A stretch of DNA of 64,000 nt from an uncultured Verrucomicrobiota bacterium (GTDB lineage Bacteria > Verrucomicrobiota > Verrucomicrobiia > Limisphaerales > UBA8199), in NCBI GenBank assembly GCA_942493075.1, contig OW818681.1, positions 5,379,509-5,443,508 on the forward strand, read 5' to 3'. Each line of letters begins with the position of its first letter. Position 1 is the stretch's first letter. The notes beneath the pieces were generated by a model. It saw only the letters and a list, made by a program, of their open reading frames with translations. It did no database searches and was not told where the DNA came from. A program made the translations under genes and the position numbers. Shown here piece by piece: positions 3,999-54,803 of this stretch.

Positions 3999-6900
3999 AT
4001 GACCGACGCTACTTTTCCTTTGTCCGATCTGCCCGCCGATCTTTGGCGCCGCGAAGAATCCCTCTGCCGCGCCGACGAGATCATCTCTCAAAGCGAAGGT
4101 AAGATCGCCGCGGTGTCATTCGACTTCTTCGACACGATGGTCTGGCGGTTGGTAAACAAGCCAACCGATGTGTTCTGCGAACTCAGTACGCGGTTGCAGC
4201 GCCAGGGCCAGATGCGCCGTGCCTTTTCCCATCAGGAGTTCGAAGTCCTGCGACGGCACGCAGAGATCAAGACGCGCGAGCATCAGGCGATGAGGGACCA
4301 CACCCGCGAAGACATCAGCATCGTGGACATCTATAGCCGGATGTCCGCCGTGGTGACGGACACTGAGGCAGCCATTGAAACCGAATATCAAGCCGAGTGC
4401 GACCTATGTGTGCTCAATCCGTTTATGGCGTCCTTTGCGATGCACCAGCGGAGCCAGGGACGCAAGCTGATGATCGTCTCGGATATTTATCTTTCCGCTA
4501 CTCAACTGGGCGGCATCCTGCGAGCCAACAAGGTCGATCCTTCCCTTTTCGACGTGCTGGTGACCTCGTGTGACGAAGGTGTATGCAAAGGCACAGGAAA
4601 TCTCTTCAAACGCGCCCTTAAAAAGGCTGGTCTGGCTCCTGAAGAGGTGCTGCACCTGGGAGATAATGTGACCGCGGATGTCACCGGTGCCCGCAAGGCC
4701 GGCGTGCGTGGCTGCCACTATACGCAAGTCTCCCCGCGCACGCGCACCGTTATGGAGCGCGAACGGATTTTGCTCGGAGGCCAAAGCCCCGTGTTTGGTG
4801 CCCACTCGCTGCGCACCATGGCCACGCGCAGCCAGCCAAACGACTCGGAAGAAGCTTTCTTTGGACAGATGGGCGCCCTCCTGATGGGCCCACTGCTGAC
4901 ACGTTATGCTGCCTGGGCGTGCGAACAATGGGTGGCTGCGGGCGTGCGAAAGGTCGGGGCTCTCATGCGCGAAGGCGAGCTGTTTGGGAAGCTGCTGCAG
5001 CAGGAAGCAGATGCCCGCGGGCACGACCTCGAAGTAATTCCACTTTTCATTAACCGCAAGGCTACAGATCTCGCAGCCATTCACCGGCTCACGGCCGATA
5101 ATCTTATCGCCTGGCTTGAGGCCCGCCCCACCCTCTCGGTTAAAACCATCCTCAGTCATTTCGGACTCAGCGGCCCCGTGGTTGCTCAGCTTCCCCTGAA
5201 TCTGGAGGACAAGGCGGACAAGCCGGAGAAAATCCTCCGGCTGGCCAAGTTCCTGTTCACTCCGGAAATCGCGAGGCGCATCGAAGCTCGCAGCGCCGAG
5301 GAGCGGCGCAAAGTCATCGATTACCTGCGCCCCTGGCTGGAAGGCGGCTATCCAATCGGCCTCAGCGACATTGGTTACAGCGCCTCCGCTCAGACACAAC
5401 TCCAGCGCATCTTTGATTTGGAGGGGATCAAGACCCAGATGATCGGCTGTTACCTCGTCGGCTATGAACGAGCAGCGGATCGCGTGCTGGATGGAGTCGA
5501 TATCCGCACGTTCCTCGGGGATTACGGGCATCCTGATTTCTTCTTCCGTGCGTTCGTCCGCTCCCCGGCGTTCATGGAACAATCCCTGGTTGCCGCCATG
5601 GGCACGACGCTCGGTTACGAGCGGCTGGCTGACGGCTCGGTAAAACCGATCCTGGATCGCACCCCTTACGATGACACGATGATGGATCGCCAAAAGCGCT
5701 TCAAACAGGGCGTTTTGGATTTCCAACGACTCTGGCTCTGGGCAAGCTGCCTCCGCCCCGGCCTGATGGATGGCACGACCGAGCTCTCAAGACGTATCCT
5801 TGCGGATGTGGATCTAGGCTTCATGCCCATCCTGGCCCGCGCTACTGCATTCCCGCTCACCACTGAGGTTGCCCGTTTCGGCTCTCTGGCGCTGGATGAT
5901 TATTATTTCGAAGACAACTACAAGCCTCTCTGCGGCGATAAGGACGTCGAGAAACTGCGAACAAAAGGCCTGGCTCAAATCATGGGCGAGCCTGGAGTGC
6001 ACTGGCCCCATGGCGTCTTTCATAAAGAGAATCCCCGCACTGCCCGCGAATTCTTCTCGTGTGCCAAAGCGATGCTTTGGTGCAACGTCAAACCGGACAC
6101 CGACGGTGTCCAGTCGGACCTAACTGTGATCCTGCCTGCGGGCTCCCGGCCGGCTGCCCTGCGTGAATGCCTCGCCAGGTTGCGCAACACCACACAGCAA
6201 GGTTTGCGCGTGGATGTGGTCGTCCTGATCGCATCCGGCCAGAAGGAAATGTCAGCCGCAGCGCTGGAGTTTAGCCGTCCGAACATCTCGATCCACATCT
6301 ACGAGCGTGGCCCGGGACAGACCCTCACACAACAGATCAACAATGTGGCGGACGATTCCGAAGCGCCGTTCCTGCTTTTCCTCGATGAAGGAGTCCTGCT
6401 GCCCAGCGGCTGGGATGCACCATTGCTCGAGATGCTCAAGCCGGATTCCGATGTGGCAGCAGCCGTCCCGGTCATGCGCCGTCTCCGCGAAGCTTCTGAC
6501 AACCCGGTGGACGCGCTGCGCGTTTTCCTGATCAAGAGAAGGGCGTTTGTCGAAGGCCTGGGGCTGAGCGAAGAAGTCAGCATCACCGCCGCGATTTGGA
6601 AGCTTGCGCATCATCTGCAAGCCATGCGCCAGCCGGTTCAGCTTTGCCCGTCGGTAACTGTCGAATTGAAGCACGGCGAAAGCTGTGTTCCGATCAACGG
6701 CAGCGACCGCGCTTACCTGGCACAGCACTGCCCTGCTTATCCGCAACTGACTAGGACACTATGCCGTGAAACCGCTAACCCGGCGGCGCAAGCCGCAAAA
6801 GCGACCCAGACCACGCAATTGGATTGGGTCGGATCGTTCCTGGATCACGGAAGCTTGTCGCAGGTGAACCGCGAGCTTACGAGCGCTTTGCGAACGACAC

Positions 6901-9900
6901 CAGGTCTCACTCTCAGGTGTGTCTCAAACGGGGCAGCACCGGCCAAGGGTCTTTCCTGCCCGAAAGGTTTCGAGGTAGTCTCGCAACCCTCAGCCAACGC
7001 GGCGGTGACTGTTCGCCATGCGTGGCCACCGGATTGGAGTCCGATGAAACAAGGCGCACTGGTGGTTATCCAGCCATGGGAGTATGGCTCGCTGCCTGTG
7101 GATTGGGTGGAGAAGTCCGCGAACGTTCAACAGTTCTGGGTCCCCTCCGAGTACGTGCGCAAGGTCTATGTCGATTCAGGGATTCCTGAGGCCAAGCTCA
7201 AAGTGGTCCCCAACGGGATCGACCCGGCACGATTCAATCCTCAGGCTGTTCCGTTCCAACTGCCGACCAGGAAGACGTTCAAGTTTCTTTTTGTAGGTGG
7301 CACGATCCATCGCAAAGGTCCGGACGTGCTCCTCCAGGCGTTCGTGCAGGCCTTCAATGCCCAGGATGATGTTTGCCTGGTCATAAAGGATTTTGGCGGG
7401 AAAAGTTTCTACGCCGGCCAGACAATGGAGGACGCTGTGCGCTTTGCCCAAAGCCAGCCCAATGCGCCTGAAATCGTATATCTGAACGAGGAACTGCCTC
7501 CCGAAAGCTTGCCCGGGCTCTACACCGCTTGTGATTGCCTGGTGCATCCATACCGCGGTGAAGGTTTCGGCCTGCCGATTCTGGAAGCCATGGCCTGTAG
7601 TTTGCCTGTGATCGTCACCTCTGGTGGCGCCGCTGATGATTTTGCCCGGCCAGAACTGGTTTACCGTGTGGCAGCAACACGTCGCAACCTCGGCCGCCGT
7701 TTGGGCGACTACGATCTCGTGAAGGATGCGTGGGTACTCGAACCGTCTCTTCCGGAAACCGCAGCCCGCATGCGCCATGTCTTTGAGCATCGTGACGAGG
7801 CCCGGTCTCGCGGTCGCGCCGCTGGCGAGTACGCCCGCCAGAACTGGACCTGGGCGGCCGCCGCACAACAGATCAATGTCCATCTGCAAGGTCTCCTGCG
7901 TGAGCCGCGCACCGTCGAAGCACCCGCACCCGCGTCTCAGACGCTTGTTTCAAAACCCGCCGTCAAAGCCGCACGGATCGTTGTTCCAGCATGCGGTCTG
8001 CTCGCCCAACTGGGTGATGCTCGCGCCGCGTTGGGACGCAAAGATTACCCCAAAGCCTGGGGCGCCTGTCTCACAGCCGTCGAAGAGCGGCCCTTCCACC
8101 CCGAAGCTGCGCTGCTGATGGCTGAAATCGCCCTCGCCGCAGGCGATGGAGATTCCGCACGGCTTTGCGCCCAGCAAGCCTCGACCATGGCTCCCGGATG
8201 GAAGCCCGCCAAGAAATTTCTCAAAGGCAATCTGCGTGGCAAAGCTCACCCCGCCTGGCTCACCATGCCGGAGAGCTGGCGCAAAGACGCAACTGCGACC
8301 CCGAAACTTTCCGTCTGCTTAATTGCCAGGAACGAGGAGAAGTTCCTTGGCCAATGCCTCAAGTCCATTCAGGCTCTGGCCTCGCAAATTGTAGTCGTGG
8401 ATACCGGGTCCACTGATCGAACGGTGGAGATCGCTCGTGAACACGGGGCTGAAGTGCATCACTTCAAGTGGTGCGACGATTTTAGCGCCGCCCGCAATGC
8501 GGCCTTGCTGCACGCTCGTGGCGACTGGGTTCTGATGCTGGATGCCGACGAGGAGCTCACCGCTGAGAACCACGCCGCTCTGCAAAAACTGTTGCGCGAA
8601 AAGAATGTCATCGCCTGGCGCTTACCGCTGGTAGATATCGGACGCGAAAGCGATGGGTGTTCTTACGTGCCGCGCCTGTTCCGCAACGCTCCGGCCCTGT
8701 TTTATGTGAGCCGCGTCCACGAGCAGGTTTTCAGCAGCATTGAAGTGCGCCGGGCGCAATGGGACATGGAAAACCGGCTCGGCAATGCACCCCTGCTCCA
8801 TCACGGGTATCGCCCGGAAATTATCCAGGAGCGCGGCAAGATCGAGCGCAACCTGCGCTTGCTTGAGCTCGCCGTGCAGGAAATGCCTGGCGAATGCAGC
8901 CTGCTAATGAATTACGGACTGGAACTAACACGCTCCGGGCAGGCCGAAGCCGGGCTGGTCCAGTATCGTCTCGCGGTGGATGCCATGTCGGCACTCCCAC
9001 CGGTGCAGGTGGTCCCTGAAACGCGCGAAATGCTGCTCAGTCAGATCGCCACACAGTTACTGGCAGCGGGCCAATTGGAAGAGCTGGTACGCACCCTCAC
9101 CTCCCCCCTGGCCGCTGCAAAGCCCGGGCTGACCGCTTCACTCCATTTCTCCCTGGGCCTGGCCCTCATGCGACTCAAGCGCTTCGAGGAAGCTGCCGAG
9201 AACTTCAAAGCGTGTATCGATAAACGTCATTTGCCTGCCCTGGCACCGATTGTCAATGAGATCACCAAGGCCGGCCCTCGCCATTGCCTGGCACTCTGCC
9301 TGGTTCAATTGAACCGCAAGGAGGCCGGCGCAGAGGAGTTTGCCCGGGCCCTCAAGGACGACCCGGCTTCACGCCCGTTGCGCCTGGATTATGCGCAATT
9401 TCTCATGGCCGATAATCGCGCGGTTGATGCCCTGCAACAACTCCATGCGCTGGCTAGCGAGAATCCCTCAGATCCGCTGGCGTGGCGCCTTGGTGCGCAG
9501 GTCGCACTGAGCCACCCGGAGTTCATCGAGGTGGCCTGCGATTGGACGCAGGAAGCTCGGCAGCATCATCCCAACGATCAGGTCCTTATCGCCGCTGCGG
9601 GTGAAGCCCAGTTGCTCAGCGGTAAAATTTCCGAAGCACAACGCATCTGGAACGAGATGCGCACGGATGGCGCTCCGGATTCCCGGCAGGAGGCCGCCTC
9701 CATCATTTGTGCGCTGCTGAGCGGTTCGCTTGCTCAGGCGATCAGTGGTTCGGAAGCCGCGGTCAGTCGCGAGTTCCTACGCTGGTACCAGAGACTGCTC
9801 CAGTTTGGGGCGCATGAGACCATCGCCCAATTGAATAAATCCTGTGCACAATTGGCCAAGGTCCTGCCCACGGCAGCGGCAATGTTGGAGGCGGCCATTC

Positions 9901-9947
9901 GGGAAGCAGGTCCCGAACAGTCCGAAACTCTGGCGGCTCGCGCCTAG
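3999..9947 (+). CDS. 1982-aa multidomain glycosyltransferase: HAD-like hydrolase / unknown region / GT2-like / GT4 (GT-B) / TPR / GT2 / long TPR-like tail
   Basis: Single uninterrupted ORF starting 9 nt after the previous stop. HAD motif I is 'VSFDFFDTMVWR', with 'MIVSDIY' and 'HLGDNVTADV'. The first GT-A module is 'LTVILPAGSRPAALRECL...FLLFLDEG'. The GT-B module is 'FKFLFVGGTIHRKGPDVLL...RGEGFGLPILEAMACSLPVIVTSGGAADDF'. The second GT2 is 'LSVCLIARNEEKFLGQCL...VVVDTGSTDRT...LMLDADEEL'. The C-terminal ~450 aa are helical and repeat-like. Confidence 0.85.
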   Translation: MTDATFPLSDLPADLWRREESLCRADEIISQSEGKIAAVSFDFFDTMVWRLVNKPTDVFCELSTRLQRQGQMRRAFSHQEFEVLRRHAEIKTREHQAMRDHTREDISIVDIYSRMSAVVTDTEAAIETEYQAECDLCVLNPFMASFAMHQRSQGRKLMIVSDIYLSATQLGGILRANKVDPSLFDVLVTSCDEGVCKGTGNLFKRALKKAGLAPEEVLHLGDNVTADVTGARKAGVRGCHYTQVSPRTRTVMERERILLGGQSPVFGAHSLRTMATRSQPNDSEEAFFGQMGALLMGPLLTRYAAWACEQWVAAGVRKVGALMREGELFGKLLQQEADARGHDLEVIPLFINRKATDLAAIHRLTADNLIAWLEARPTLSVKTILSHFGLSGPVVAQLPLNLEDKADKPEKILRLAKFLFTPEIARRIEARSAEERRKVIDYLRPWLEGGYPIGLSDIGYSASAQTQLQRIFDLEGIKTQMIGCYLVGYERAADRVLDGVDIRTFLGDYGHPDFFFRAFVRSPAFMEQSLVAAMGTTLGYERLADGSVKPILDRTPYDDTMMDRQKRFKQGVLDFQRLWLWASCLRPGLMDGTTELSRRILADVDLGFMPILARATAFPLTTEVARFGSLALDDYYFEDNYKPLCGDKDVEKLRTKGLAQIMGEPGVHWPHGVFHKENPRTAREFFSCAKAMLWCNVKPDTDGVQSDLTVILPAGSRPAALRECLARLRNTTQQGLRVDVVVLIASGQKEMSAAALEFSRPNISIHIYERGPGQTLTQQINNVADDSEAPFLLFLDEGVLLPSGWDAPLLEMLKPDSDVAAAVPVMRRLREASDNPVDALRVFLIKRRAFVEGLGLSEEVSITAAIWKLAHHLQAMRQPVQLCPSVTVELKHGESCVPINGSDRAYLAQHCPAYPQLTRTLCRETANPAAQAAKATQTTQLDWVGSFLDHGSLSQVNRELTSALRTTPGLTLRCVSNGAAPAKGLSCPKGFEVVSQPSANAAVTVRHAWPPDWSPMKQGALVVIQPWEYGSLPVDWVEKSANVQQFWVPSEYVRKVYVDSGIPEAKLKVVPNGIDPARFNPQAVPFQLPTRKTFKFLFVGGTIHRKGPDVLLQAFVQAFNAQDDVCLVIKDFGGKSFYAGQTMEDAVRFAQSQPNAPEIVYLNEELPPESLPGLYTACDCLVHPYRGEGFGLPILEAMACSLPVIVTSGGAADDFARPELVYRVAATRRNLGRRLGDYDLVKDAWVLEPSLPETAARMRHVFEHRDEARSRGRAAGEYARQNWTWAAAAQQINVHLQGLLREPRTVEAPAPASQTLVSKPAVKAARIVVPACGLLAQLGDARAALGRKDYPKAWGACLTAVEERPFHPEAALLMAEIALAAGDGDSARLCAQQASTMAPGWKPAKKFLKGNLRGKAHPAWLTMPESWRKDATATPKLSVCLIARNEEKFLGQCLKSIQALASQIVVVDTGSTDRTVEIAREHGAEVHHFKWCDDFSAARNAALLHARGDWVLMLDADEELTAENHAALQKLLREKNVIAWRLPLVDIGRESDGCSYVPRLFRNAPALFYVSRVHEQVFSSIEVRRAQWDMENRLGNAPLLHHGYRPEIIQERGKIERNLRLLELAVQEMPGECSLLMNYGLELTRSGQAEAGLVQYRLAVDAMSALPPVQVVPETREMLLSQIATQLLAAGQLEELVRTLTSPLAAAKPGLTASLHFSLGLALMRLKRFEEAAENFKACIDKRHLPALAPIVNEITKAGPRHCLALCLVQLNRKEAGAEEFARALKDDPASRPLRLDYAQFLMADNRAVDALQQLHALASENPSDPLAWRLGAQVALSHPEFIEVACDWTQEARQHHPNDQVLIAAAGEAQLLSGKISEAQRIWNEMRTDGAPDSRQEAASIICALLSGSLAQAISGSEAAVSREFLRWYQRLLQFGAHETIAQLNKSCAQLAKVLPTAAAMLEAAIREAGPEQSETLAARA

Positions 9948-11758: not shown

Positions 11759-11874
11759 CGCCGCAACCTACCCAGTGCACACACCGGAGTCGAGACTGCG
11801 CTGAAGAAGAGAGCATTCGCTAAGGGGTGCAGAATTTAGATGACACTTTTCCCAAGGATTCTAAACTCAAACCT

Positions 11875-14037
11875 ATGTTTCCTTTCTTTCGCTTGCCTCA
11901 ACTGCGCCGCCTGTCCGCGCTCGTTTTGGCAGCTTTCATCTGGCATGTGCCACCTGCGGTTCAGGCAGAAAAAGTCACGGTGCTGGTTATCAGCACACAT
12001 CCAGATGACGAAGGCATTTTCTTCGGAGGCACACTGCCGTACTACACGCAGGTGTTGAAAGTGCCTGCCGTGCTGATGTCGATGACTAGCGGAGATTGGA
12101 CGCCGAGCAACTTGGCCGTGCGTGAGGCGGAACTGAAGTGCGCCGCACGCATGTATGGATTTAGCGGCGAGCCAATATTCGGACGCTTTCGCGATGTGCC
12201 ATCTCACACCATGGTGAACAATCCCTATACCAACGTTCTGGCGCAAGCCCCGTTCACAAATCGGATCGATGCCACATGGGACTACTGGGCGGATGGTGTG
12301 CTGCAGGGAGATGGCAGCGACGTGGAAGCCGGCAAGAGACGCGCGATCAATTTTGTGGCTGAGCAGATTCGGCGCTACCAACCGGATGTCATCATCACCC
12401 AGGATTACCTGGGTGAGTATGGGCACGACAATCACCGGGCGCTGGCCTGGGCTGTGACGAACGCCTTTTACGTTGCGGCTGATCCGAGTGCGACTGCTAC
12501 CAACCTGGCGGGGTTGCTTCCCTGGCAAGCCAGCAAATTGTATCTTCATCTCTGGCCCAGCAATCGGCTCTTTCACACGGCGACAGCTTATCGTTTTGCC
12601 GAATTGGGCAATCTTACCCCGACGGAAGTGGCTGACGCGGGGTTGGATTGTCATGTGTCGCAAAAACAGCCTGATGTGGCGAGCGTGTTCAAGACCGGGG
12701 AAAACTATGACGCATATCCATCGCAATGGTGGGGGCTCTACGCCAGCACAGTAGGACCTGATACAATCCTAACGACGAATGCGACGGAGAAACGTTTCGT
12801 AATTCCCGCCGGAGTGGCTAAGGGCAACTTCCTGGAGCATATCCTCTCGGCGCCTGCCACAAGCGCACCACCAATTTTTATCACAAACCAGATCGCTGGC
12901 CAGGGTGCGCTGTCGGCTCGACCGTACACCGGGCCTGATCTTTCGGAACTCGTCACCGATTTCGATCTCGCATGGAGTGAGACACTGACCTTCTCGAAAG
13001 TCACCGGCCCGATTTGGTTGCAGGTGGCTGACGGCGGGGCGATCTCCGGTCTGCCGGGCAGCGCCGATCTTGGAACTAACATCTTCACTGTGCGTGTGAC
13101 CGACCATGCAGGCTTGATGGCCGATGCAACGCTCCGAGTCGTGGTTTCGGAGCCGCTGGACGATGCGGCTGCACTCGTTGGTTGGTGGAAGCTGGATGAA
13201 TCTGAGGGAGCCAATGCGCTCGATTTTGCGCCACCCGGGCAGGACGGCGTGTGCTCATCTGGAGTGACGTTAAATCAGCCCGGAGCTGCTCCCTGGACGA
13301 GCACCTCAGCCCTTTTCTCCGGCACGACTAACGGGAAGATAGATGTCGCATGGTCTGCGGAACTGAATCCGCCGGTGTTCACCGTTGCGTGCTGGGCCAA
13401 AGTAACAGGAGGAGCCGGAAGCTACCGCTCGCCGGTATCCAGCCGCCGGGATGGTCCGCAGAGTGGCTATATGCTCTACGCGGGGAATGACAATCGATGG
13501 CAGTTTTGGACGGGCAAATCGAGCGGTTACAATCGAATGGCTGCAGGGCCCGTGGTAAATGGAGAGTGGACGCATTTGACGGGGACATTCGACGGGAAAG
13601 TGGCGCGGTTTTACACCAATGGTGTGCTCGCGGTCTCAAACTCCGTAACCTTCCGGGCGAATGACATGTTTCCGCTGAGAATTGGCGCGGGCAGCTCGGA
13701 GCTCGCAACCGGGCAATACTTCTTCCCGGGCAGCGTGGATGATGTGCGGGTGTACACTATTCCTCTCAGCGCAACGCGCGTCGCCGCTTTATGCTCGAAT
13801 GCGCCACCAGTCACACCTCTGATCACAGAACCTCCGTCGATCAAAGCAGGCATATTGAATCTGGGTGGCGTCGGGTTTCCGGGGGAAGAGTATGTGCTGC
13901 TCGTTAGCACCGATTTGGGAGGCAACTGGAGCCGAGTGGCTACGAACTTCTCAGGTGCTGCAGGGTCCTTCAGTTTTTCAATCCCAACCCCGGATGGAAG
14001 CGAACCTCGCTTCTTCACGATTAGTACCGCTCACTAG
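11875..14037 (+). CDS. secreted PIG-L/LmbE-family deacetylase fused to a He_PIG/cadherin-like Ig domain, a LamG (Laminin_G_3) domain and a C-terminal R[FY][FY]-type module
   Basis: Start moved to ATG 11875, giving the signal peptide 'MFPFFRLPQLRRLSALVLAAFIWHVPPAVQA'. PIG-L motifs are 'VLVISTHPDDEGIFFGG' and 'YGHDNHRAL'. The LamG domain shows 'LVGWWKLDES...FPGSVDDVRVY'. The tail is 'EEYVLLVSTDLGGNWSRV...PRFFTISTAH'. Confidence 0.8.
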   Translation: MFPFFRLPQLRRLSALVLAAFIWHVPPAVQAEKVTVLVISTHPDDEGIFFGGTLPYYTQVLKVPAVLMSMTSGDWTPSNLAVREAELKCAARMYGFSGEPIFGRFRDVPSHTMVNNPYTNVLAQAPFTNRIDATWDYWADGVLQGDGSDVEAGKRRAINFVAEQIRRYQPDVIITQDYLGEYGHDNHRALAWAVTNAFYVAADPSATATNLAGLLPWQASKLYLHLWPSNRLFHTATAYRFAELGNLTPTEVADAGLDCHVSQKQPDVASVFKTGENYDAYPSQWWGLYASTVGPDTILTTNATEKRFVIPAGVAKGNFLEHILSAPATSAPPIFITNQIAGQGALSARPYTGPDLSELVTDFDLAWSETLTFSKVTGPIWLQVADGGAISGLPGSADLGTNIFTVRVTDHAGLMADATLRVVVSEPLDDAAALVGWWKLDESEGANALDFAPPGQDGVCSSGVTLNQPGAAPWTSTSALFSGTTNGKIDVAWSAELNPPVFTVACWAKVTGGAGSYRSPVSSRRDGPQSGYMLYAGNDNRWQFWTGKSSGYNRMAAGPVVNGEWTHLTGTFDGKVARFYTNGVLAVSNSVTFRANDMFPLRIGAGSSELATGQYFFPGSVDDVRVYTIPLSATRVAALCSNAPPVTPLITEPPSIKAGILNLGGVGFPGEEYVLLVSTDLGGNWSRVATNFSGAAGSFSFSIPTPDGSEPRFFTISTAH

Positions 14038-16969: not shown

Positions 16970-17033
16970 CTGCTATATATCTCCTCATATCCATGTGTCC
17001 GCACCGGTATATCAGAAGAAACCGAACGCAATT

Positions 17034-17849
17034 ATGAACAACTCCTTTCTCATCATCACTGCTCTCGTCGCCGCAACGGTCGCACAGGCGGCCGACGTTC
17101 CCGCCGGAGTGACCGGCCTTTGGCGCTTTCAGGACAGTGCCAACAAGCTCAGTGCCACCTTGGGCTCGCCCCTTGTGTCCAGCCATGTCGATAACAGCGC
17201 CTGGATGGGTGGCCCAATCACCGTCATCAATCCGGGCCTCACCGATAGCGGAGTTGTCCAGGAACGCACCTCTGATTTTCTCACGGTGAACCCAAACTTC
17301 ACGGCGAACGGCGGTGGTGAGGGTATCTACGTAAACGAATACACGGTCGCCATCGATTATGTTCAAACCAGCGGTGCCACTACCTGGAACAGCCTTTTCC
17401 AAACCGCTGCTACGGGCACTGCCAACGACGGCGACCTCTGGACGGATGGTGCCGGCCATATCGGGGTAGGAGATGTCGGCTACTCCACCCTGACTTACGA
17501 CGCCTCATCCTGGCATCGCATCGTCTGGTCAGTGGATAACGGCAGCTTTTTCCGAGTTTACGTGGACGGCACTCTGTATTTGGACGGTGCTGGCCAAGCG
17601 GTGGATGGCCGATTCGCTCTGTATACGGACACATTCCACCTATTTGCTGATAATGACGGGGAAGATCAATGGGGTTTGGTCGGAACCGTCGCCACCTGGG
17701 ACCGTGCGCTGACTACTGACGAGGTCTCCGGCATGGGCGGCTGGATCGGCGGGTCCCCCACACCCACGGCGTTAACTATCCCCGAACCTAGTGTGTTAAG
17801 TCTTCTGGGGCTTGGCGCTCTGTCACTGCTTCTCCGCAGGCGGAGCTAA
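17034..17849 (+). CDS. PEP-CTERM sorting-domain protein with a LamG/concanavalin-like domain
   Basis: Start moved to ATG 17034, giving the signal peptide 'MNNSFLIITALVAATVAQA'. The C-terminus 'PEPSVLSLLGLGALSLLLRRRS' is a PEP motif, a TM helix and a basic tail. 'WHRIVWSVDNGSFFRVYVDGTLY' is LamG-like. Confidence 0.8.
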   Translation: MNNSFLIITALVAATVAQAADVPAGVTGLWRFQDSANKLSATLGSPLVSSHVDNSAWMGGPITVINPGLTDSGVVQERTSDFLTVNPNFTANGGGEGIYVNEYTVAIDYVQTSGATTWNSLFQTAATGTANDGDLWTDGAGHIGVGDVGYSTLTYDASSWHRIVWSVDNGSFFRVYVDGTLYLDGAGQAVDGRFALYTDTFHLFADNDGEDQWGLVGTVATWDRALTTDEVSGMGGWIGGSPTPTALTIPEPSVLSLLGLGALSLLLRRRS

Positions 17850-21364: not shown

Positions 21365-21748
21365 CTCTGGCAACCCTTCTGGTTGCGGCCCCATGCTTCA
21401 CTTCACCATGAGGACATCCCAACACTGCCGTTCTAGAACGTAGCGTCAGGAGACGCGGCCTACAGAACGGAGTGCCTTCCCCATTAGATTGGTGCGGTCA
21501 AACCCGCACACACCGAAGAACCAGGGCTTGCTTTGTGTGTGACTTTTAGCTGGGGAGAGCCTTAAGGGGCATCATCGAAGCGCTTGCGGTGTTCAAAATG
21601 GCGGCCTCGGCGAAGCCGCCCTACCCGCCGCGTCGGTATCATTTTTCACTATCTGCGTGCATCTGTGAAATCGGTGGATGATTTCCTTTCGGCTTTTTTA
21701 GCATACTTGACATTTTGATGCTGAAATTGAGAATACGACCCTGTTGTG

Positions 21749-24700
21749 ATGTATATTCAAAGGTTCGCTAAGCACATTCTCCTACTTTTGGCATTGGTTT
21801 CGCCCGGCATGCTGGCTCAGGCAGACTTCGTCATTGGCACTCTAGATCCCACCTTCGATCCGGCTCCCGACGGTGCCGTGACCTCCATTGCCCCACAAAT
21901 CGACGGGAAGATTGTCGTTGGAGGGCGATTCCTGGCCCTGGGAGTGGTGCCGCGCGATTATATCGGGCGTCTCAATGCGAATGGGAGCGTCGATGCAGGA
22001 TTTAATCCAGGCGCGAATAGTGAGATATTGGCTATCGCAATACAGACGAACGGAGGAATCCTCGTGGGAGGTAGGTTCACAATTCTTGAAGGGAGTCTCC
22101 GTTACTACTTGGCACGCATTAAGCCTGATGGACATGTTGATTTCAAATTCAACCCCGGCAACGCAGTCGACTACATCTTCCCTTCCCCTGGCGCGGACGC
22201 TCCTGTGCGTTGTCTGGCTCTGCAAGCAGATGGACGAATCCTGGTCGGAGGCGAGTTCACCAGGATGGGCCCGCATACGCGCAACCATATTGCACGGCTC
22301 AATACCGATGGAAGTGTGGATACCACGTTCAACCCCGGCGCAGATTCTGAGGTGCGCGCCATGGCATTACAGCCAGACGGCAAGATCATCGCAGGCGGGT
22401 GGTTTACTGAACTAGGGGGAGCAGTGCGTGCGGGTGTAGGCCGCCTCAATCTGGATGGAACCCTGGATACGACTTTTGTGCCTGCTGGTGTCGAGTCTGC
22501 GACAAGACTTGCTCTGCAGGCAGATGGCAGAATCGTTGTCGTCGGGGATTGGACAGGATTGCCGCAAAAGAAGATTGGCCGGCTGAATGCGGACGGCAGC
22601 CTGGATGAAACTTTCAACGTGGACACCGACGAAGATGTTGCCTCCATGGAAATTCAGGCTGATGGCAAGATCCTGGTAGCAGGGCTGTTTACACAGATCG
22701 GCGGACAATCGCGCAAAGGAATCGCACGTCTTAATCCGGACGGCACCATCGATAACACATTTACTCCGACAGCGAATGACACCGTTATATCCTTGGCATT
22801 GGAGCAGGATGGAGATCTCCTGGTTGGTGGTTTGTTCACCGAATTGGCCGGGCAGCCGTGCACGAATATCGGGTTGATCACCAACATTGGGCCGGTGGCT
22901 CAGACTCTCACGTTCAATGCCTCAAAGATTACCTGGCTGCGAGGGGGCAACTCACCGGAGGTGTATCGGACCACGTTTGAGTTTTCCACGAATAGAGGCA
23001 TTTCCTGGACCCAGTTGTCTGAAGGCACTCGGATTGATGGTGGCTGGGAACTTTCGAGTCCCAACCTGCCTGTAACCTCAACGCTCCGCGCTCGTGGTTA
23101 CGTAGGTGGGGCTCACGCAAATTGGTTCTTCGAGTCTCTTGGTGGCCAGCCGGCAATTTGGCGGCAACCGGTCAGCCGAGATGAACTCGTAGGCGCTACG
23201 ACGCTTTTTGAAGTCGGGGTATGGACGGGCGGCCTTACGGGGACCAGTTATCAGTGGCTCAAAAACGGAACCAATCTAATGAATGGAGACGGTATCAGCG
23301 GAGCACAAACGACCTCGCTGACAGTAACCAATCTCACCAAGGAGGATCATGGCAGTTACGCCTTCGTGCTCAACTATAACCTGGGGAGTGTCACCAGTGT
23401 GGTAGCCCGGTTGAATGTTTCAGCTCCTGCAAGGTTTGATGCGAGCTTCCATCTTGAAACCGACTCGGTAGGGGACATTCAATGCCTCGTCCCACAAGCA
23501 GACGGCAAACTCCTCGTCGGAGCCTGGTTCAGCCAGTTATCCGGGCAGCCGCGGAGTTGCATCGGACGTCTCAATGCCGATGGCAGCGTGGATGCCTCTT
23601 TCGATCCGAACATAGACGACCGGGTTTGCTCGATCGCAGTTCAGGCGGATGGGCGCGTTCTCGTTGGAGGAAGTTTTCTGAAGGTTAATGGTGAGATTCA
23701 TCGTTATATGGTGCGGCTCAATCCTGACGGAACGGTGGACAATACGTTTTCTGCGAAACCCGACTACGACGTTCGCGGTATTGTGGTGCAGTCCGATGGT
23801 AAGATCCTTATCACAGGCGATTTCAACCAATTGGATGGACACCCCAGTGAACATATCGGGCGACTGAACGCCGATGGTAGCATTGATAGCACTTTCAACT
23901 CTGGTGTGGACAATGAGGTCTATTGTGTAGCCTTGCAGGCAGACGGCAAGATTCTGGTCGGCGGAGATTTTGAGGAGCTGAGCGGGCAGCCATGTGAATC
24001 TTTTGGACGGCTCAATGTCGATGGCAGCCTCGATACTGCTTTTCTCTCAACAGTGGACGGCCGTGTCTGGACAATCGCTGTTCAGCCGGATCAAAAAATA
24101 CTGCTTGCAGGCGATTTCACTGAACTAAATGGGACACTACGGTTCAACACTGGCCGTCTGAACGCGGGTGGAAGTGTGGATGACACATTTGATGCCAGTG
24201 CCTATGAGGAGGTGCTTTCCATGGCGGTACAGGCTGACGGGAGGATTCTACTCGGCGGGTCATTCGACACATTGAACTACCAGTCCCGGCAGCGTCTTGG
24301 ACGGCTTTACGCTGACGGAACTCTGGACGCCACTTTCAACCTGGAAGCCGATGATGAGGTGAACTCCATTGTGATTCAGCCGGACGGGAAGATACTGTTA
24401 ACGGGCGAATTTAATGAACTCGGCGGAAAGCCTTGCAACGGTTTCGGACGGCTAAACAATACGGACCCAGCTACAGAGGAACTCACCTTTGATGGTTCCA
24501 GAATTACCTGGGTGCGCGGTGGAACCAGCCCGGGGGTATATCGCACGACGTTTGATGTCTCGACGGATGGGGGTGTCCAATGGACCGCTTTAGGCAACGG
24601 GGCATGGACCGGAGAGGCGTGGGAACTTTCGGGACTCACCTTGCCAGCCAACTCAACCATCCGGGCAAGCGGCCATTCAATTATGGGCAGCTCTAGTTTT

Positions 24701-26509
24701 GTCTGTGAGTCTTACTTTGGAAAGCTGGCGATTTCCGTCCAACCGTTCAACCGAATCAGCAGCGCGTCCACAACAACCTCCTTTTCCGTGCACGCATGGG
24801 GCGGAGGTGAAGCTTGCCATTACCAGTGGCACCGGGACGGCACGAACCTGGTGGATGGAGGTAACATTAGCGGAGCACAGACTTCCACTCTTTTCCTGAA
24901 TAACGTGCTCAAGCCGGACGAAGGCAACTATACGGTTGTGATCAGCAACTCGTCAGGAAGTGTTACGAGTGTCGTTGCCATGCTGACCGTTGCAGATCCT
25001 GCGATCTTGTCACAACCAACAGTCCTGGTGAGAGAACTGGGCACATCAGCAACACTCTCCATTACGGCGGGTGGAACCGCGCCGCTCAGCTATCAGTGGT
25101 GGAAGGACGGAGCAGCGTTGAACGGTCACACAAGCAGCGCCCTCGCCCTGAACAGTCTGAGCGCGACCGATGCCGGGTATTATTCCGTTGTGATTTCCAA
25201 TATCTGGGGCCACATGAACAGCGTTACTGTTCCCCTGACCGTGAATACTGCAACCGTGGATCCCAGCTTCATCGCAGGAACGGATGGGTATGTCACTTGC
25301 ATCGCGTTGCAATCTGACGGAAAAGCGTTGATTGGCGGGCATTTTAGCCAACTCGGCGGGCAACCACGAAATCATATTGGTCGTCTCAACGCAGACGGCA
25401 CAGTGGACTCGGCCTTTAATCCAGGGGCGGATGGCACAATTTGTGCCCTCACTGTGCAACCGGACGGCAAAATCCTGACTGGCGGATATTTCAGCATTTT
25501 AGGCGGACAACCACGCAAGTATATTGCACGGCTTAACCCGGACGGCACTTTGGATGCAAACTTCAAGCCGACCCTAGACCTTTACGCTTTTTCCATAGCA
25601 ATGCAGAAGGACGGAAAAATTCTGGTTGGTGGCGCGGCGATTGAGATACCTCTCAACCATTTAGTGCGACTTAACGCAGACGGTACAGTAGACACGACCT
25701 TCAACCCTGGAGCGGATCATGTTGTGTACTCTCTGGCAATTCAAGCCGACGAGAAAATCGTGGTCGGAGGTGCTTTCGAATCCTTAGGCGGGGAGAGCCG
25801 CAGTCGGATTGGGCGTCTCAATCCTGATGGGAGTTTGGATACCAGCTTCAATCCGGGAACTGACAACACGGTATCTTCATTAGCCGTACAGAGCGATGGC
25901 AAAATTCTGGTGGGTGGCTTGTTCACGACCGTAGCAGGACAGTATCGTGATCACCTCGCACGTCTCAACTCCGATGGGAGCCTGGATACCAGTTTCACTT
26001 CAGAAGCGGACTATTTCGTAAATACTCTGGCAGTCCAAGCTAATGGGAAGATCCTCGTTGGAGGCCCTTTTGGGACTGTCGCAGGACAGACACGCAACCG
26101 CATCGCGCGGCTTAATCGCGATGGCAGGCTGGATACCAGCTTTAATCCGGGAACCGGAGGAATATACCCAAACGTGAATTGCCTCGCTGTCAGAAATGAC
26201 GGGGGCATCTTTGTGGGCGGGAGCTTTGAAACATTAGGCGGGCAGCCTCGTAATTCTCTCGGTCTGCTAAAGGGTGATGCTCCAGCACGGCCTCACATTG
26301 TCTCGGATGGCTCTACGCAAGTTTCAACGGACGGTTTCAAATTCAACTTCTCAGGCATCGCCGGTTCATCAATCGTCATTGAGAGCTCCACCGACCTAAT
26401 GAATTGGGAGGCAATACAAACGAACGTCATAACAGGCGGAGCGGGTTCCTTCACAGACTCCGCAGCAGCGAATTCACCGGGACGCTATTACCGACTTCGA
26501 ATGAAATAA
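21749..26509 (+). CDS. giant secreted delta-60 repeat (DUF5122-type beta-propeller) protein with Ig-like I-set domains
   Basis: Signal peptide 'MYIQRFAKHILLLLALVSPGMLAQA'. About 18-20 copies of the ~50-aa unit 'DGKILVGGxFtxlgGqxRnxIaRLNaDGSlDtsFnpg' fall in three blocks, separated by Ig modules ('YQWxKxGxxL...DxGxYxxVxSNxxGSVTSxxAxLxV'). The C-terminal module is 'SSIVIESSTDLMNWEAI...GRYYRLRMK'. Confidence 0.9.
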   Translation: MYIQRFAKHILLLLALVSPGMLAQADFVIGTLDPTFDPAPDGAVTSIAPQIDGKIVVGGRFLALGVVPRDYIGRLNANGSVDAGFNPGANSEILAIAIQTNGGILVGGRFTILEGSLRYYLARIKPDGHVDFKFNPGNAVDYIFPSPGADAPVRCLALQADGRILVGGEFTRMGPHTRNHIARLNTDGSVDTTFNPGADSEVRAMALQPDGKIIAGGWFTELGGAVRAGVGRLNLDGTLDTTFVPAGVESATRLALQADGRIVVVGDWTGLPQKKIGRLNADGSLDETFNVDTDEDVASMEIQADGKILVAGLFTQIGGQSRKGIARLNPDGTIDNTFTPTANDTVISLALEQDGDLLVGGLFTELAGQPCTNIGLITNIGPVAQTLTFNASKITWLRGGNSPEVYRTTFEFSTNRGISWTQLSEGTRIDGGWELSSPNLPVTSTLRARGYVGGAHANWFFESLGGQPAIWRQPVSRDELVGATTLFEVGVWTGGLTGTSYQWLKNGTNLMNGDGISGAQTTSLTVTNLTKEDHGSYAFVLNYNLGSVTSVVARLNVSAPARFDASFHLETDSVGDIQCLVPQADGKLLVGAWFSQLSGQPRSCIGRLNADGSVDASFDPNIDDRVCSIAVQADGRVLVGGSFLKVNGEIHRYMVRLNPDGTVDNTFSAKPDYDVRGIVVQSDGKILITGDFNQLDGHPSEHIGRLNADGSIDSTFNSGVDNEVYCVALQADGKILVGGDFEELSGQPCESFGRLNVDGSLDTAFLSTVDGRVWTIAVQPDQKILLAGDFTELNGTLRFNTGRLNAGGSVDDTFDASAYEEVLSMAVQADGRILLGGSFDTLNYQSRQRLGRLYADGTLDATFNLEADDEVNSIVIQPDGKILLTGEFNELGGKPCNGFGRLNNTDPATEELTFDGSRITWVRGGTSPGVYRTTFDVSTDGGVQWTALGNGAWTGEAWELSGLTLPANSTIRASGHSIMGSSSFVCESYFGKLAISVQPFNRISSASTTTSFSVHAWGGGEACHYQWHRDGTNLVDGGNISGAQTSTLFLNNVLKPDEGNYTVVISNSSGSVTSVVAMLTVADPAILSQPTVLVRELGTSATLSITAGGTAPLSYQWWKDGAALNGHTSSALALNSLSATDAGYYSVVISNIWGHMNSVTVPLTVNTATVDPSFIAGTDGYVTCIALQSDGKALIGGHFSQLGGQPRNHIGRLNADGTVDSAFNPGADGTICALTVQPDGKILTGGYFSILGGQPRKYIARLNPDGTLDANFKPTLDLYAFSIAMQKDGKILVGGAAIEIPLNHLVRLNADGTVDTTFNPGADHVVYSLAIQADEKIVVGGAFESLGGESRSRIGRLNPDGSLDTSFNPGTDNTVSSLAVQSDGKILVGGLFTTVAGQYRDHLARLNSDGSLDTSFTSEADYFVNTLAVQANGKILVGGPFGTVAGQTRNRIARLNRDGRLDTSFNPGTGGIYPNVNCLAVRNDGGIFVGGSFETLGGQPRNSLGLLKGDAPARPHIVSDGSTQVSTDGFKFNFSGIAGSSIVIESSTDLMNWEAIQTNVITGGAGSFTDSAAANSPGRYYRLRMK

Positions 26510-28280: not shown

Positions 28281-29045
28281 ATGCCACAGAACAACGACCA
28301 ACACAGGAAGCCGGTTGTCCGCGGCTTTCTGGCATTTACCTTGATCGAGTTGCTGGTTGTCATCGCAATCATCGGCATCCTCACGGCCATGCTGCTGCCA
28401 ACGTTGGGCCGCGCGAAGGAGCGCGCTCGCCGGATCGCGTGCCGGAATAACTTGAAGCAGTTGGGCACGGGGAACCTGCTGTTCGCTGGGGACAACAACG
28501 GGCAATTCACCGGATGCACCAATTACAAGCAGGACGACCTGAACTGGCTTTACCCCACGTACATTCCGACTCCGAAAACCTATGCCTGTCCGAGCACCCA
28601 GAACGAAGTGCATCCGGACGAGTTGATTGGCATCAGTTCGCTTACCGGCCTGCCCATCTTAAGGGACTTAGCGAACTTCGCCCGATCCAACAGCGACATC
28701 CACGGGCACAGCTATGAGCAGTACGGATGGTGGCTCGATCCGTCGCCTTCGGGAACCATGAAGACCGAACACCTTGTGCTTTCGCGAGCACACACGCACG
28801 ACGCGTTTGGTCTGCGGGGGCAGATTCCCGGTCCGGCACGCACGTGGCTGATGGTAGATAGCGATGACCTCAAATACCCACCCAGCCCACGCAACCACAA
28901 TAATTGGCCCGACGCGGTTGACCACCATGGTGCCGATGGAATCAACTGCGTTTTCGCGGATGGGCACGCCGAGTGGATTTTGCAGGCGCATTACCTGTTC
29001 AGCTATGAGATGTCGGCGGATGAGGGGAGGACAAAGCCGTACTGA
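28281..29045 (+). CDS. prepilin-type N-terminal cleavage/methylation domain protein, DUF1559 / H-X9-DG family pseudopilin
   Basis: '[49 protein letters not shown]' is a class III signal (G|FTLIE) with the DUF1559 N-terminal region. The C-terminal '[18 protein letters not shown]' is the H-X(9-10)-DG motif. Confidence 0.9.
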
Positions 29046-46578: not shown

Positions 46579-47322
46579 TTAGAACTTGTAGGCAACCGCA
46601 GTCACGAGCTTCAGGTCATTCCGATCGCGGCCTTTGGCAGGCACGTTATCATACACATCCTGCAGATAAGTTCGCAGGCTCAACCGCTTGGATAAGGCAG
46701 TCTCCAGGCCGATTTCAGCCGTCATGATGAAGTTTTCAAAATCCTCGATCTCGGGCAGGATTTCCGCCGATTGCCAGATCTTCAGGGTGGTGCTGAACTT
46801 CTTATCAAACCGCTCTGCGAGGCGGAGGGTCAGATAGTTGTTCCGATCACTCCCCACTTTCTCGAACACGTAGCCAGGACCCACTTCAGCCCGGAGACTG
46901 GTATCCTCATTCTTGATGAAGTAATAACCGGCACCAGGGCTGAGCGCCAAACGGTACTCAACGTCTGCAATCGCGTCATGCACGGCATCCACGCGCATGT
47001 AGCCGAAAAAGCGTTCCGTGAAGAGTCTGTTATACTGGGCATAACCCCTGAGCTGTTCAGCGCTCTTCTCGTCCCGATCCTCGGCGTAAACTCCGCTCGC
47101 GCCCATGCTCAGCTCGTTCTTCTCCCACTTCCGGGCAGTTTGGACATCTCCGATGATGTTCATCGTTTCCGTGTTGCCGCGGGTCAGTGTCAGACCCAGG
47201 GAGGCACTGCTGTCCCACAGGCTTTTGGGTGTGGACGGCGCCCCGGCATCTGTTGCCTGGCCGAAAGCCGCACCCGCCCCTAAACTCAGCGCCAGTCCGA
47301 TTGTGGTTAGTTTCTGATTCAT
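46579..47322 (-). CDS. DUF481-family outer-membrane beta-barrel protein (YdiY-like)
   Basis: Signal peptide 'MNQKLTTIGLALSLGAGAAFGQ'. 'ASLGLTLTRGNTET', alternating beta-strand patterning and a C-terminal '...VTAVAYKF' are present. Its stop is 2 nt from the kinase start. Confidence 0.8.
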   Translation of the reverse strand: MNQKLTTIGLALSLGAGAAFGQATDAGAPSTPKSLWDSSASLGLTLTRGNTETMNIIGDVQTARKWEKNELSMGASGVYAEDRDEKSAEQLRGYAQYNRLFTERFFGYMRVDAVHDAIADVEYRLALSPGAGYYFIKNEDTSLRAEVGPGYVFEKVGSDRNNYLTLRLAERFDKKFSTTLKIWQSAEILPEIEDFENFIMTAEIGLETALSKRLSLRTYLQDVYDNVPAKGRDRNDLKLVTAVAYKF

Positions 47323-47615
47323 TGTCTTTTAGCTTGGTTTTTGTTGCCCGTTCTCCGCCCCTTCGGTGATATCGAACTTACGTCATCGCCGCAAAAAGCG
47401 ATGCTCCATTCACCAGCGGATTTAGGGGTTATCGTAGCCCAATATTCGCTGCTGGCAACCGAAAGATGGACCGTTTGCCGCCCCTCACTAAGCTCACAAA
47501 AGGCAGCGTCCTTTCTGCTTTGAACGTGGTGAGGAGTGTCCGCTGCATGCGCTCATGCCGGGCAGGACTAAAATGCTTGCTTCCCCGGGGTGCAAATGGG
47601 AAATTATTTTACCGC

Positions 47616-54794: not shown

Positions 54795-54803
54795 TTTTTA
54801 GTT

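Follow-up and report, generated by a model that had tools for sequence, protein, structure and literature searches.

Three exoproteins encoded in a 64-kb window from an uncultured Verrucomicrobiota bacterium (by window, we mean the whole stretch of 64,000 nucleotides that was analysed) end in the same small, homologous module. This module is a member of a large family without a name, whose carriers in this analysis are mainly Verrucomicrobiota, and it is strongly biased towards the C-terminus of very diverse extracellular proteins. We tentatively propose that it might bind a common partner and in this way target proteins to the cell surface or retain them there, a reading that we regard as possible rather than probable.

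Three exoproteins with a common C-terminal module

The original prediction described a shared module at the ends of three proteins, and the module indeed forms the final ~72-76 residues of ORFs 11827..14037, 21746..26509 and 47466..50789. The relevant features of the window are the following, in order of position.

11827..14037 (+): gene of an exoprotein with PIG-L deacetylase, He_PIG and Laminin_G_3 domains; likely start ATG 11875; module at the end
11875-11967: signal peptide of the deacetylase protein, MFPFFRLPQLRRLSALVLAAFIWHVPPAVQA
13807..14034 (+): module copy 2, C-terminal 76 aa of the PIG-L deacetylase/LamG protein, …VSTDLGGNWS…PRFFTISTAH
16995..17849 (+): classical PEP-CTERM protein devoid of the module, the contrast case in the window, …IPEPSVLSLLGLGALSLLLRRRS
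21746..26509 (+): gene of a delta-60 repeat exoprotein of 1587 aa, with ~20 DUF5122 repeats and Ig_3/I-set; module at the end
21746-21823: signal peptide of the delta-60 protein, MMYIQRFAKHILLLLALVSPGMLAQA
26282..26506 (+): module copy 1, C-terminal 75 aa of the delta-60 repeat protein, PARPH...STDLMNW...GRYYRLRMK; stop codon 26507-26509
47466..50789 (+): gene of an exoprotein with GHL10, CarboxypepD_reg, Ig and DUF4623 domains; likely start ATG 47616; module at the end
47616-47711: signal peptide of the GHL10 protein, MTSHLHFRLSRPVASTFLLLLSLACSALLARA
50571..50786 (+): module copy 3, C-terminal 72 aa of the GHL10 protein, …FSENLVDWQ…RRFYRVHWEP

Pairwise BLASTP comparisons confirmed that the three tails are related (E = 9e-6 and 3e-5; 24-27% identity over ~72 aligned columns). 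When the window was scanned with the A3 profile, the domain E-values were 1.4e-22 for the copy of the delta-60 protein, 2.7e-21 for that of the GHL10 protein and 4.1e-17 for that of the deacetylase. The latter is the most divergent of the three, with RFFT in place of RFYR; it is retained in an orthologue fragment (P0017), and the GHL10 copy is retained in the orthologues P0026 and P0034. The ends of the tails were correctly placed by the original prediction, but the domain begins somewhat further upstream (at ~13807, 26282 and 50571) and includes two extra strands. Sec-type signal peptides are readable in all three proteins, and their N-terminal parts are unrelated as had been proposed, with PIG-L, He_PIG and Laminin_G_3 in the first, DUF5122/delta-60 repeats and Ig in the second and GHL10, CarboxypepD_reg, Ig and DUF4623 in the third. 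Six-frame scans with the 3-sequence and 32-sequence profiles and a C-terminal motif scan yielded these three copies only, the next best E being > 0.7, and the putative fourth copy, described as a relic, was thus not recovered.

Searching 1.84 billion proteins with the three-tail profile matched 14,503 cluster representatives (clusters at 50% identity) at E <= 0.001, with a common motif layout, and 590 clusters at the stricter cut-off of E <= 1e-10. The module has no model in Pfam-A or NCBIfam, as determined by hmmscan with the three tails and 32 family members at E <= 1, and no sequence relative among PDB sequences. The precomputed Pfam annotation of module-only fragments, from a newer release, shows no match either. 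A word-indexed homology search with the 3-tail and 32-sequence profiles returned nothing, or six fragments only, because the domain is too short and too divergent for a word index. We found no description of the module in the literature on verrucomicrobial C-terminal domains and 'RFYR'. The broad family alignment contains no conserved stretch of 7-10 columns, and there are weak motif-level echoes in glycoside-hydrolase propeller blades and F5/8-type domains. Verrucomicrobiota labels are carried by 65 of the 80 genome loci that harbour the module; since these loci were collected with one subfamily alignment, this taxonomic picture is that of the subfamily.

AlphaFold2 modelled copy 1 as six strands and a short helix (pLDDT 85), and copy 3 adopts the same six-strand layout (pLDDT 89.3). 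The top Foldseek matches are generic FN3/Ig scaffolds, including TENCON and titin FN3 (best E 7.6e-3, range to 0.3; TM 0.45-0.69), and the 50 matches listed for either model do not include any T9SS CTD structure. According to these models, the tail of ~65-70 residues folds autonomously as an FN3-like beta sandwich of six strands. Two elements characterise it and are the best conserved of the module, namely a hairpin similar to an Asp-box, S-T-[DN]-L-x-x-W, that connects strands 3 and 4, and the final strand, with the sequence R-F-Y-R. As the R[FY][FY]R motif is also kept in internal copies, it belongs to the fold as its final strand and is no terminal tag. The charge of the module is close to neutral, with a mean net charge of 0 and a median pI of 6.2.

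C-terminal bias, cargo and exclusion of PEP-CTERM tails

In the 80 genome loci, 92 of 99 genes (93%) have their last copy of the module at most 5 residues from the stop codon, and 6 of the 99 have it more than 15 aa away; other domains follow the module in ~7% of the genes. Similarly, 128 of the top 150 database matches have a module <= 3 aa from the terminus. The module is always at the extreme C-terminus in the window, as initially described, but family-wide this is a strong tendency only. Copy numbers also vary: 87 of the 99 genes in the loci have a single copy and 12 have 2-10 copies, and 146 of the top 150 database matches have 2-10 copies; both tandem arrays and a few internal copies occur. 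The original prediction took the module to be position-locked and regarded internal occurrence as evidence to the contrary; the internal copies and the arrays of 2-10 copies argue against such a lock. It also regarded a generic FN3/Ig fold with no positional bias or co-occurring machinery as unfavourable to a sorting role. The predicted fold is indeed a generic FN3/Ig sandwich, but the positional bias is very strong. The nearest neighbours of terminal copies are themselves terminal in 59% of cases vs a background of 37%, an excess for which common ancestry of whole arrays is an equally good explanation.

In 80 genes, the cargo represents 57 Pfam families, which are without exception of an extracellular kind and include Ig, fn3, sedolisin, DUF11, LRR, SBBP, LamG and S8; in some matches, three modules accompany a cohesin domain (P0016). 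Among the listed delta-60 homologues, 95 of 120 have the module at their end. At least eight further delta-60 homologues terminate in a short variant, which is related to the module according to hhalign (probability 79%, E = 1.7e-5); the C-terminal slot is kept as its sequence drifts. PF28321.1, a newer Pfam family, was rejected as a tracker of the module, since it was found in 22/99 cases with the module and 4/21 without it.

Signal peptides are present in the module-bearing NHL proteins as well as in the three proteins of the window. Across the loci, a signal-peptide heuristic, insensitive and confounded by mis-called starts, was positive for 42 of 78 module ORFs (54%) vs 120 of 443 other ORFs (27%); with the same insensitivity and confounding, 29-35 of ~92 database matches were positive. 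The density of the module is three copies per 64 kb in the window, and the loci contain ~19 bystander genes with it per Mb. We take this density to be typical of a paralogous targeting domain, an extrapolation that is our own.

The module was also proposed to be a second tag distinct from PEP-CTERM, and the data bear out that the two are distinct. No PEP-CTERM tail follows the module in the ~300 module proteins examined, hydrophobic (TM-like) tails are absent from all of 93 module proteins and none of the 10 PEP-CTERM ORFs of the loci has a module. Genuine PEP-CTERM tails were detected in L084 and in window ORF 16995..17849, and the module tails have no PF07589 match. The two alternate on one family of NHL-propeller proteins that are 50-98% identical: 74 complete genes include 31 with a PEP-CTERM end, 12 with the module or its short variant and none with both. 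In this family, the C-terminal slot is also filled by FG-GAP, Kelch, CHB_HEX_C_1 and one other domain ('VEVYRLN'), for which a PPC-like label was withdrawn because it has no Pfam support. Since the slot also holds ordinary accessory domains, the alternation with PEP-CTERM is not by itself the mark of a targeting device. BLAST revealed no cargo shared between the PEP-CTERM protein of the window and any of the module proteins collected.

We found no candidate secretion or processing machinery in the 64-kb window, where the T9SS components PorK/L/M/N, Sov/SprA, PorU and PorV are all absent. None recurs beside the module genes of the 80 loci either, contrary to the expectation of a co-occurring processing or secretion gene. 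The recurrent neighbours in these loci are a LuxR-type response regulator and CoaE (nine loci each), plus antisense ORFs; recurrence of the first two is probably due to synteny of one orthologue.

Possible roles of the module

In the mechanism that we tentatively favour, the proteins would be exported by Sec through their N-terminal signal peptides. The C-terminal domain would then bind non-covalently to a shared cell-surface partner, which could be a polymer of the envelope or a protein that acts as a receptor, such that unrelated enzymes and adhesin-like proteins would be kept on the cell. Beside the covalent or membrane route of PEP-CTERM proteins, the module would provide another one; tandem copies would raise avidity and the logic would be akin to that of dockerins, SLH and GW modules. 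Arrays of 2-10 copies are more readily reconciled with binding through avidity than with a signal that is used once for translocation. In contrast, the prevalence of single copies argues against a non-covalent anchor, as SLH, GW and LysM modules are usually multi-copy, and the neutral charge does not support a polyanion-binding anchor, many such anchors being basic. The generic FN3/Ig fold and the lack of a recurrent neighbour gene in the 80 loci also count against surface targeting, as does, weakly, the rate of 54% positives among module ORFs in the insensitive signal-peptide heuristic. Of the initial proposal of a sorting or anchoring domain, the homology, the C-terminal bias and the diversity of the cargo stand, but the position lock and the terminal-signal motif do not, and no co-occurring gene was found in the window or beside the module genes of the loci; the role itself is plausible.

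Rather unlikely in our view, though second to retention, is that the module plays no part in sorting and is an accessory domain of a generic FN3-like kind, such as a ligand- or glycan-binding, stabilising or spacer unit. Its C-terminal bias would then come from the shuffling and inheritance of 3' modules in the lineage, for which CHB_HEX_C_1 and BACON ('often N-terminal') can be compared. The generic fold is what one would expect of such a domain, as are its ability to be repeated and to sit internally, with all copies alike, the sharing of the NHL slot with ordinary accessory domains, the lack of machinery beside the module genes and the weak motif echoes in propeller blades of glycoside hydrolases and F5/8-type domains. 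A lone spacer at a free C-terminus, however, has nothing to space, and the 93% terminal placement that the module displays across more than 50 unrelated cargo families is far from what is known of FN3, PKD and Big domains. The retention of the slot in delta-60 homologues despite the drift to a short variant, and the consistent absence of PEP-CTERM downstream of the module in ~300 proteins, also fit poorly with an accessory domain.

It is less likely still that the module is an outer-membrane export or sorting signal, possibly cleaved, that is read by dedicated verrucomicrobial machinery as a functional analogue of the T9SS CTD. With similarly low probability, Verrucomicrobiota could have an as yet undescribed pathway for outer-membrane export or surface attachment in which the module marks the cargo. 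It would then be a functional parallel of the T9SS CTD, unrelated in sequence, and would serve about a hundred exoproteins per genome in bacteria that abound in soil and peat. The combination of Sec signal peptides, a small C-terminal Ig-like sandwich and many cargoes in one lineage follows a T9SS-like logic, and the hairpin and last strand match the essential CTD motifs in position (PMC11285876). The exclusivity with PEP-CTERM and the swap on homologous cargo point in the same direction, tail swaps of this kind having been treated as a sign of sorting signals (PMC3237569). However, the arrays of 2-10 copies, the domains downstream in ~7% of the genes and the equal conservation of internal copies do not suit a signal of this type. 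Only a weak proline-rich PPxP linker precedes the module, with no conserved cleavage motif, and neither the profile searches, nor the top Foldseek matches, nor the window and the neighbourhoods of the 80 loci yielded a T9SS counterpart. The least probable reading is that the module works like a dockerin, docking exoproteins onto a scaffold protein and so assembling a complex of several enzymes or of adhesins. The mostly single C-terminal copy on many unrelated enzymes and binding proteins, many of them per genome, is compatible with it, as is the association of cohesin with three modules. Dockerins, however, are helical, calcium-binding EF-hand-like repeats, and the module is predicted to be an all-beta sandwich with no Pfam dockerin match; nor did the analysis bring up a candidate scaffold in which a receptor domain is repeated.

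Soils and peat are rich in Verrucomicrobiota of the Limisphaerales/Pedosphaerales type, most of which have not been cultured, and we know of no account of how they move large exoproteins across or onto the outer membrane. An estimated tens to perhaps a hundred unrelated exoproteins per genome would end in the module, which provides a handle on this question. A profile of the module would flag the surface and secreted proteome in metagenomes and enable phylogenetic profiling for a partner or machinery, and if it were a targeting domain, it could be used as a display tag. Were it a mere accessory FN3-like domain, the gain would be modest, namely a new Pfam family of ~14,500 clusters at 50% identity.

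Comparison with known systems

One of the closest known systems is the T9SS type A CTD of Bacteroidota (Por_Secre_tail PF18962/TIGR04183). Many Sec cargoes of a single lineage terminate in this Ig-like sandwich, which is ~60-80 aa in size, and a small C-terminal sandwich is also predicted for the module. After export, T9SS CTDs are cut off by the sortase PorU; upstream of the module there is no conserved motif other than the weak proline-rich linker. T9SS cargo proteins combine a Sec signal peptide with a small Ig-like C-terminal sandwich (PMC4804311, PMC11285876). The latter is a compact seven-strand 3+4 sandwich, in which 'motif Lβ3β4' and 'motif C-t.' are essential (PMC11285876); the conserved strand 3-4 hairpin and last strand of our module correspond to both elements in position. 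In contrast, the module has six predicted strands, Verrucomicrobiota labels and tandem as well as internal copies, and hmmscan of the three tails and 32 members against Pfam-A and NCBIfam at E <= 1 gave no PF18962/TIGR04183 match. The cargo of the module does not follow the T9SS rule of a single terminal copy either, as 12 of the 99 genes in the loci and 146 of the top 150 matches are multi-copy. To our knowledge, there are no arrays of T9SS CTDs.

PEP-CTERM/exosortase tails (PF07589, TIGR02595) resemble the module as C-terminal suffixes of unrelated signal-peptide proteins, with many per genome, and occupy the same NHL slot. They are short tripartite signals composed of a PEP motif, a transmembrane helix and a basic cluster (PMC3237569), whereas the module folds as a soluble domain and contains no hydrophobic stretch. 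PPC domains (PF04151) are also small beta-rich C-terminal additions to secreted enzymes, in one or two tandem copies; thus, protease E495 has two of them, and its mature forms have none, one or two (PMC3327674). However, the module has no PF04151 match at E <= 1, and its cargo is far broader than peptidases.

FN3/Ig domains (PF00041 and relatives) belong to the fold class predicted for the module and provide the best Foldseek matches, with TM 0.5-0.69 for FN3 scaffolds such as TENCON and titin FN3. The module differs from FN3 by being ~20 aa shorter (about 65-70 aa), with six strands and a strong C-terminal bias; hmmscan gave no fn3 match, and hhalign returned a probability of 0.2% when 28 FN3 domains of these very proteins were used for comparison. 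Its S-T-[DN]-L-x-x-W hairpin is reminiscent of the Asp-box/BNR motif (S-x-D-x-G-x-x-W), but the glycine is usually missing, and there is one motif per sandwich and no propeller blade. The deacetylase tail remained below the Pfam BNR threshold (E = 0.16-0.17; ~12 bits vs a cut-off of 27).

SLH, GW and dockerin modules are modular, often C-terminal and present in variable copy numbers on diverse exoproteins. Our module has no sequence or fold kinship with them, is neutral rather than basic and is most often found as a single copy, but it is likewise modular, C-terminal, carried by diverse exoproteins and variable in copy number.

The shared C-terminal module and its predicted fold

As originally predicted, three ORFs of the window carry a homologous C-terminal module on bodies that, according to Pfam and NCBIfam, are unrelated to one another:

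11827..14037, + strand: PIG-L deacetylase ORF (736 aa), with PIG-L, He_PIG and Laminin_G_3 domains
21746..26509, + strand: delta-60 repeat ORF (1587 aa), with ~20 DUF5122/delta-60 repeats and Ig_3/I-set domains
47466..50789, + strand: GHL10 ORF (1107 aa), with GHL10, CarboxypepD_reg, Ig_3 and DUF4623 domains

A Sec-type signal peptide is readable in all three (MFPFFRLPQLRRLSALVLAAFIWHVPPAVQA, MMYIQRFAKHILLLLALVSPGMLAQA and MTSHLHFRLSRPVASTFLLLLSLACSALLARA). The tails share 24-27% identity across their final ~72-75 residues; the tryptophan in S-x-[DN]-L-x-x-W and the arginine in R-[FY]-[FY] are among the invariant columns. Pairwise BLASTP between tails gave E = 9e-6 and 3e-5. The proposed fourth copy, a 'relic', was not recovered: two profiles and a motif scan applied to all six frames of the window returned three copies only. 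The relic may correspond to two internal Asp-box-like domains of the delta-60 protein, located between propeller repeats and Ig domains, which have weak BNR and Reelin_subrepeat-B matches in Pfam and no match to the module profile:

~22950..23020, + strand: Asp-box-like motif FEFSTNRGISWTQL, residues ~405-425
~24500..24570, + strand: Asp-box-like motif FDVSTDGGVQWTAL, residues ~925-945

AlphaFold2 predicted one confident model shared by the delta-60 tail (32-sequence alignment, pLDDT 85.0) and the GHL10 tail (23-sequence alignment, pLDDT 89.3), with six strands and a short helical turn ahead of the last one. The S-T-D-L-x-x-W motif forms the strand 3-4 hairpin, and R-F-Y-R lies within the last strand. 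Foldseek searches of the PDB with these models yielded nothing at E <= 0.001; the top matches were FN3/Ig scaffolds (TENCON, titin FN3, a de novo Ig domain and EMMPRIN; E = 7.6e-3 to 0.3, TM 0.45-0.69), and the T9SS CTD was absent among the matches listed. Since only FN3/Ig scaffolds were matched and profile-profile comparison with the FN3 domains of the same proteins detected no relationship (probability 0.2%), the module constitutes a sequence family of its own, with a short FN3-like fold.

Family size, position and copy number

An exhaustive HMMER search of 1.84 billion cluster representatives with the three-tail profile retrieved 14,503 proteins at E <= 0.001, including 590 at E <= 1e-10. 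No Pfam-A or NCBIfam entry matched the tails at E <= 1, except for a sub-threshold BNR/Asp-box echo (E = 0.17), and no relative was found among PDB sequences. Neither did Pfam give a convincing family match for 32 family members, or a precomputed match for module-only fragments, newer release included. In each of ten of the top matches, a Pfam scan left the module region uncovered while identifying other domains (DUF11, Big_9, fn3, cohesin, LVIVD, LRR_5, DUF5122, RCC1, Laminin_G_3, CARDB and CBM_4_9). The names given to the 32 family members in their source records refer to the N-terminal cargo only, and our literature search found no published description of the module. At the sequence level, the family is thus real, large and unnamed.

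The module had been described as always located at the extreme C-terminus. This holds as a very strong bias; internal copies nevertheless exist. Among the best 150 of the 14,503 matches (the ranking, by summed score, favours proteins with several copies), 146 contain 2-10 tandem copies, and the last copy ends at most three residues from the protein end in 128. Internal and terminal copies share one consensus, RFYR included, and RFYR is therefore part of the fold rather than a terminal tag. A sample with less bias was obtained with a subfamily pattern in a single scan of 185,579 species genomes, which gave 360 confirmed sites, and 80 loci (1.01 Mb) were retained for counting stop-to-stop ORFs. 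They comprise 99 module genes, 87 of them with a single copy. The last copy lies within five residues of the stop codon in 92/99 genes and more than 15 residues upstream in six, for example with a LamG-like domain after it. About 19 of the 99 are non-seed genes, i.e. roughly 19 per Mb, compared with three copies per 64 kb in the window; by extrapolation, a genome might harbour tens to about a hundred module genes.

The best 120 homologues of the delta-60 protein carry the module at their terminus in 95 cases (one copy in 73, two in 22) and 7-13 residues from the end in four. Eight of the 21 without a profile match (P0223, P0224, P0225, P0232, P0236, P0237, P0239 and P0272) close in a short variant, …YQVQQSxNLxxPNSWQxVGxP…LFLRVR, also found in ORFs of loci L066 and L073, and another four close in …[FY][FYL]RL…. 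Thus, the C-terminal slot persists as the sequence drifts. The short variant aligns with the module over 58 columns (hhalign probability 79%, E = 1.7e-5), and the family is therefore wider than our profile indicates. Precomputed Pfam lists also place PF28321.1 in 26 of the 120 homologues; its occurrence does not track the module.

Cargo proteins, hosts and genetic context

Fifty-seven different Pfam families were identified on 80 module genes from the 80 loci, the commonest (Ig_3, fn3, I-set, Pro-kumamolisin, DUF11, LRR, SBBP and DUF5122) all being of extracellular type. All 93 complete-looking module proteins lack a hydrophobic segment at the C-terminus, and none of the ten PEP-CTERM-like ORFs of these loci carries the module. 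The window itself codes for a classical PEP-CTERM protein, which has no cargo in common with the collected module proteins:

16995..17849, + strand: PEP-CTERM protein with a LamG-like body and the tail …IPEPSVLSLLGLGALSLLLRRRS

A family of NHL-repeat propellers was collected in a metagenome scan (80 loci, 50-98% identity to the query), and the endings of its 74 ORFs terminated by a stop codon were tallied.

Endings of 74 NHL-propeller ORFs
PEP-CTERM-type tail (confirmed in L084 by a PF07589 match): 31
Module: 11
Module, short variant: 1
Other domain closing in VEVYRLN: 11
Others, including FG-GAP, Kelch and CHB_HEX_C_1/Fn3_assoc: 20

The module and PEP-CTERM never occur together in these 74 ORFs, and the NHL-propeller proteins that bear the module have clear signal peptides. 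The extension …GVALVEVYRLN, which ends 11 proteins (L086, L089, L091, L093, L098 and others), has no Pfam name.

Host labels were taken from the single subfamily pattern (80 loci) rather than from the full family. Sixty-five loci are in Verrucomicrobiota-labelled records (Verrucomicrobiia/-ae, Limisphaerales, Pedosphaera, 'subdivision 3' and Methylacidimicrobium). The other 15 are labelled 'bacterium' (4), Acidoferrum (2), Limnocylindrales (1) or, for eight from co-assembly bins (L016, L017, L021, L034, L042, L052, L073 and L080), 'uncultured Bifidobacteriaceae' or 'Bifidobacterium sp.'. The latter labels are probably wrong, because the subfamily is otherwise almost confined to Verrucomicrobiota-labelled records. 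Every named delta-60 homologue bears a Verrucomicrobiota/-ae/-ales label.

Clustering of all ORFs of the 80 loci revealed no recurrent neighbours of module genes beyond a LuxR-type regulator and CoaE (nine loci each), which probably reflect synteny of one orthologue. Upstream of the module there is no conserved motif, only a weak PPxP linker, and the module is neutral (mean net charge 0, median pI 6.2). Other genes of the window are as follows:

818..3475, + strand: 885-aa fusion of a capsule-synthesis domain and a radical SAM domain
3999..9947, + strand: 1982-aa fusion with HAD hydrolase, GT4, GT2 and TPR parts
28281..29045, + strand: N_methyl + DUF1559 prepilin-like protein
46579..47322, - strand: DUF481 protein, divergent neighbour of the GHL10 gene
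51875..57841, + strand: type IV pilus/type II secretion-like cluster of four consecutive genes, just downstream of the GHL10 gene region

Two genes of the cluster code for PilB/GspE-like ATPases with MshEN domains, one for a PilT-like ATPase and one for a T2SSF platform protein. We found no tie between the module and this cluster, or between the module and the DUF481 protein, a putative outer-membrane beta-barrel. Prepilin-like proteins of the N_methyl/DUF1559 type are typical of the PVC group (Planctomycetota/Verrucomicrobiota), and the one found here agrees with the taxonomic placement of the window. The two fusion genes look like polysaccharide synthesis genes.

Possible roles of the module

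The module is a new FN3-like domain family, with a host range of Verrucomicrobiota as far as sampled. It has a very strong, not absolute, C-terminal bias, resides on very diverse signal-peptide cargo, can form arrays and is exclusive with PEP-CTERM. The original idea of a sorting or anchoring domain is plausible and partly supported, but two observations named beforehand as refuting it apply in part, as some copies are internal and the fold is a generic one. The role that we rank first, tentatively, is non-covalent surface targeting or retention by docking, which would explain why the module is mostly terminal, resides on such diverse cargo, has many paralogues, alternates with PEP-CTERM and occurs in tandem arrays. 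An assembly function like that of dockerins would be a special case of this docking role, and an improbable one. Suffix swapping on homologous cargo has been taken as a sign of sorting signals (PMC3237569). By this analogy, the swapping on NHL cargo is only suggestive of a sorting signal, because the same C-terminal slot also houses ordinary domains. These mixed occupants, like the fold, agree with a generic accessory domain; this explanation, somewhat less likely than docking, leaves the 93% terminal placement unexplained.

Finally, the module might be an export signal resembling the T9SS CTD, which we consider unlikely given its arrays and internal copies, and as no machinery was found in the window or among the neighbours in the 80 loci. 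The attraction of this reading lies in a likeness of position: the conserved strand 3-4 hairpin and last strand of the module occupy the places at which T9SS CTDs have their two functional motifs (PMC11285876). Membership tests for known C-terminal tags placed the module family with none of them, and we file it among the C-terminal beta-sandwich add-ons of exported proteins.
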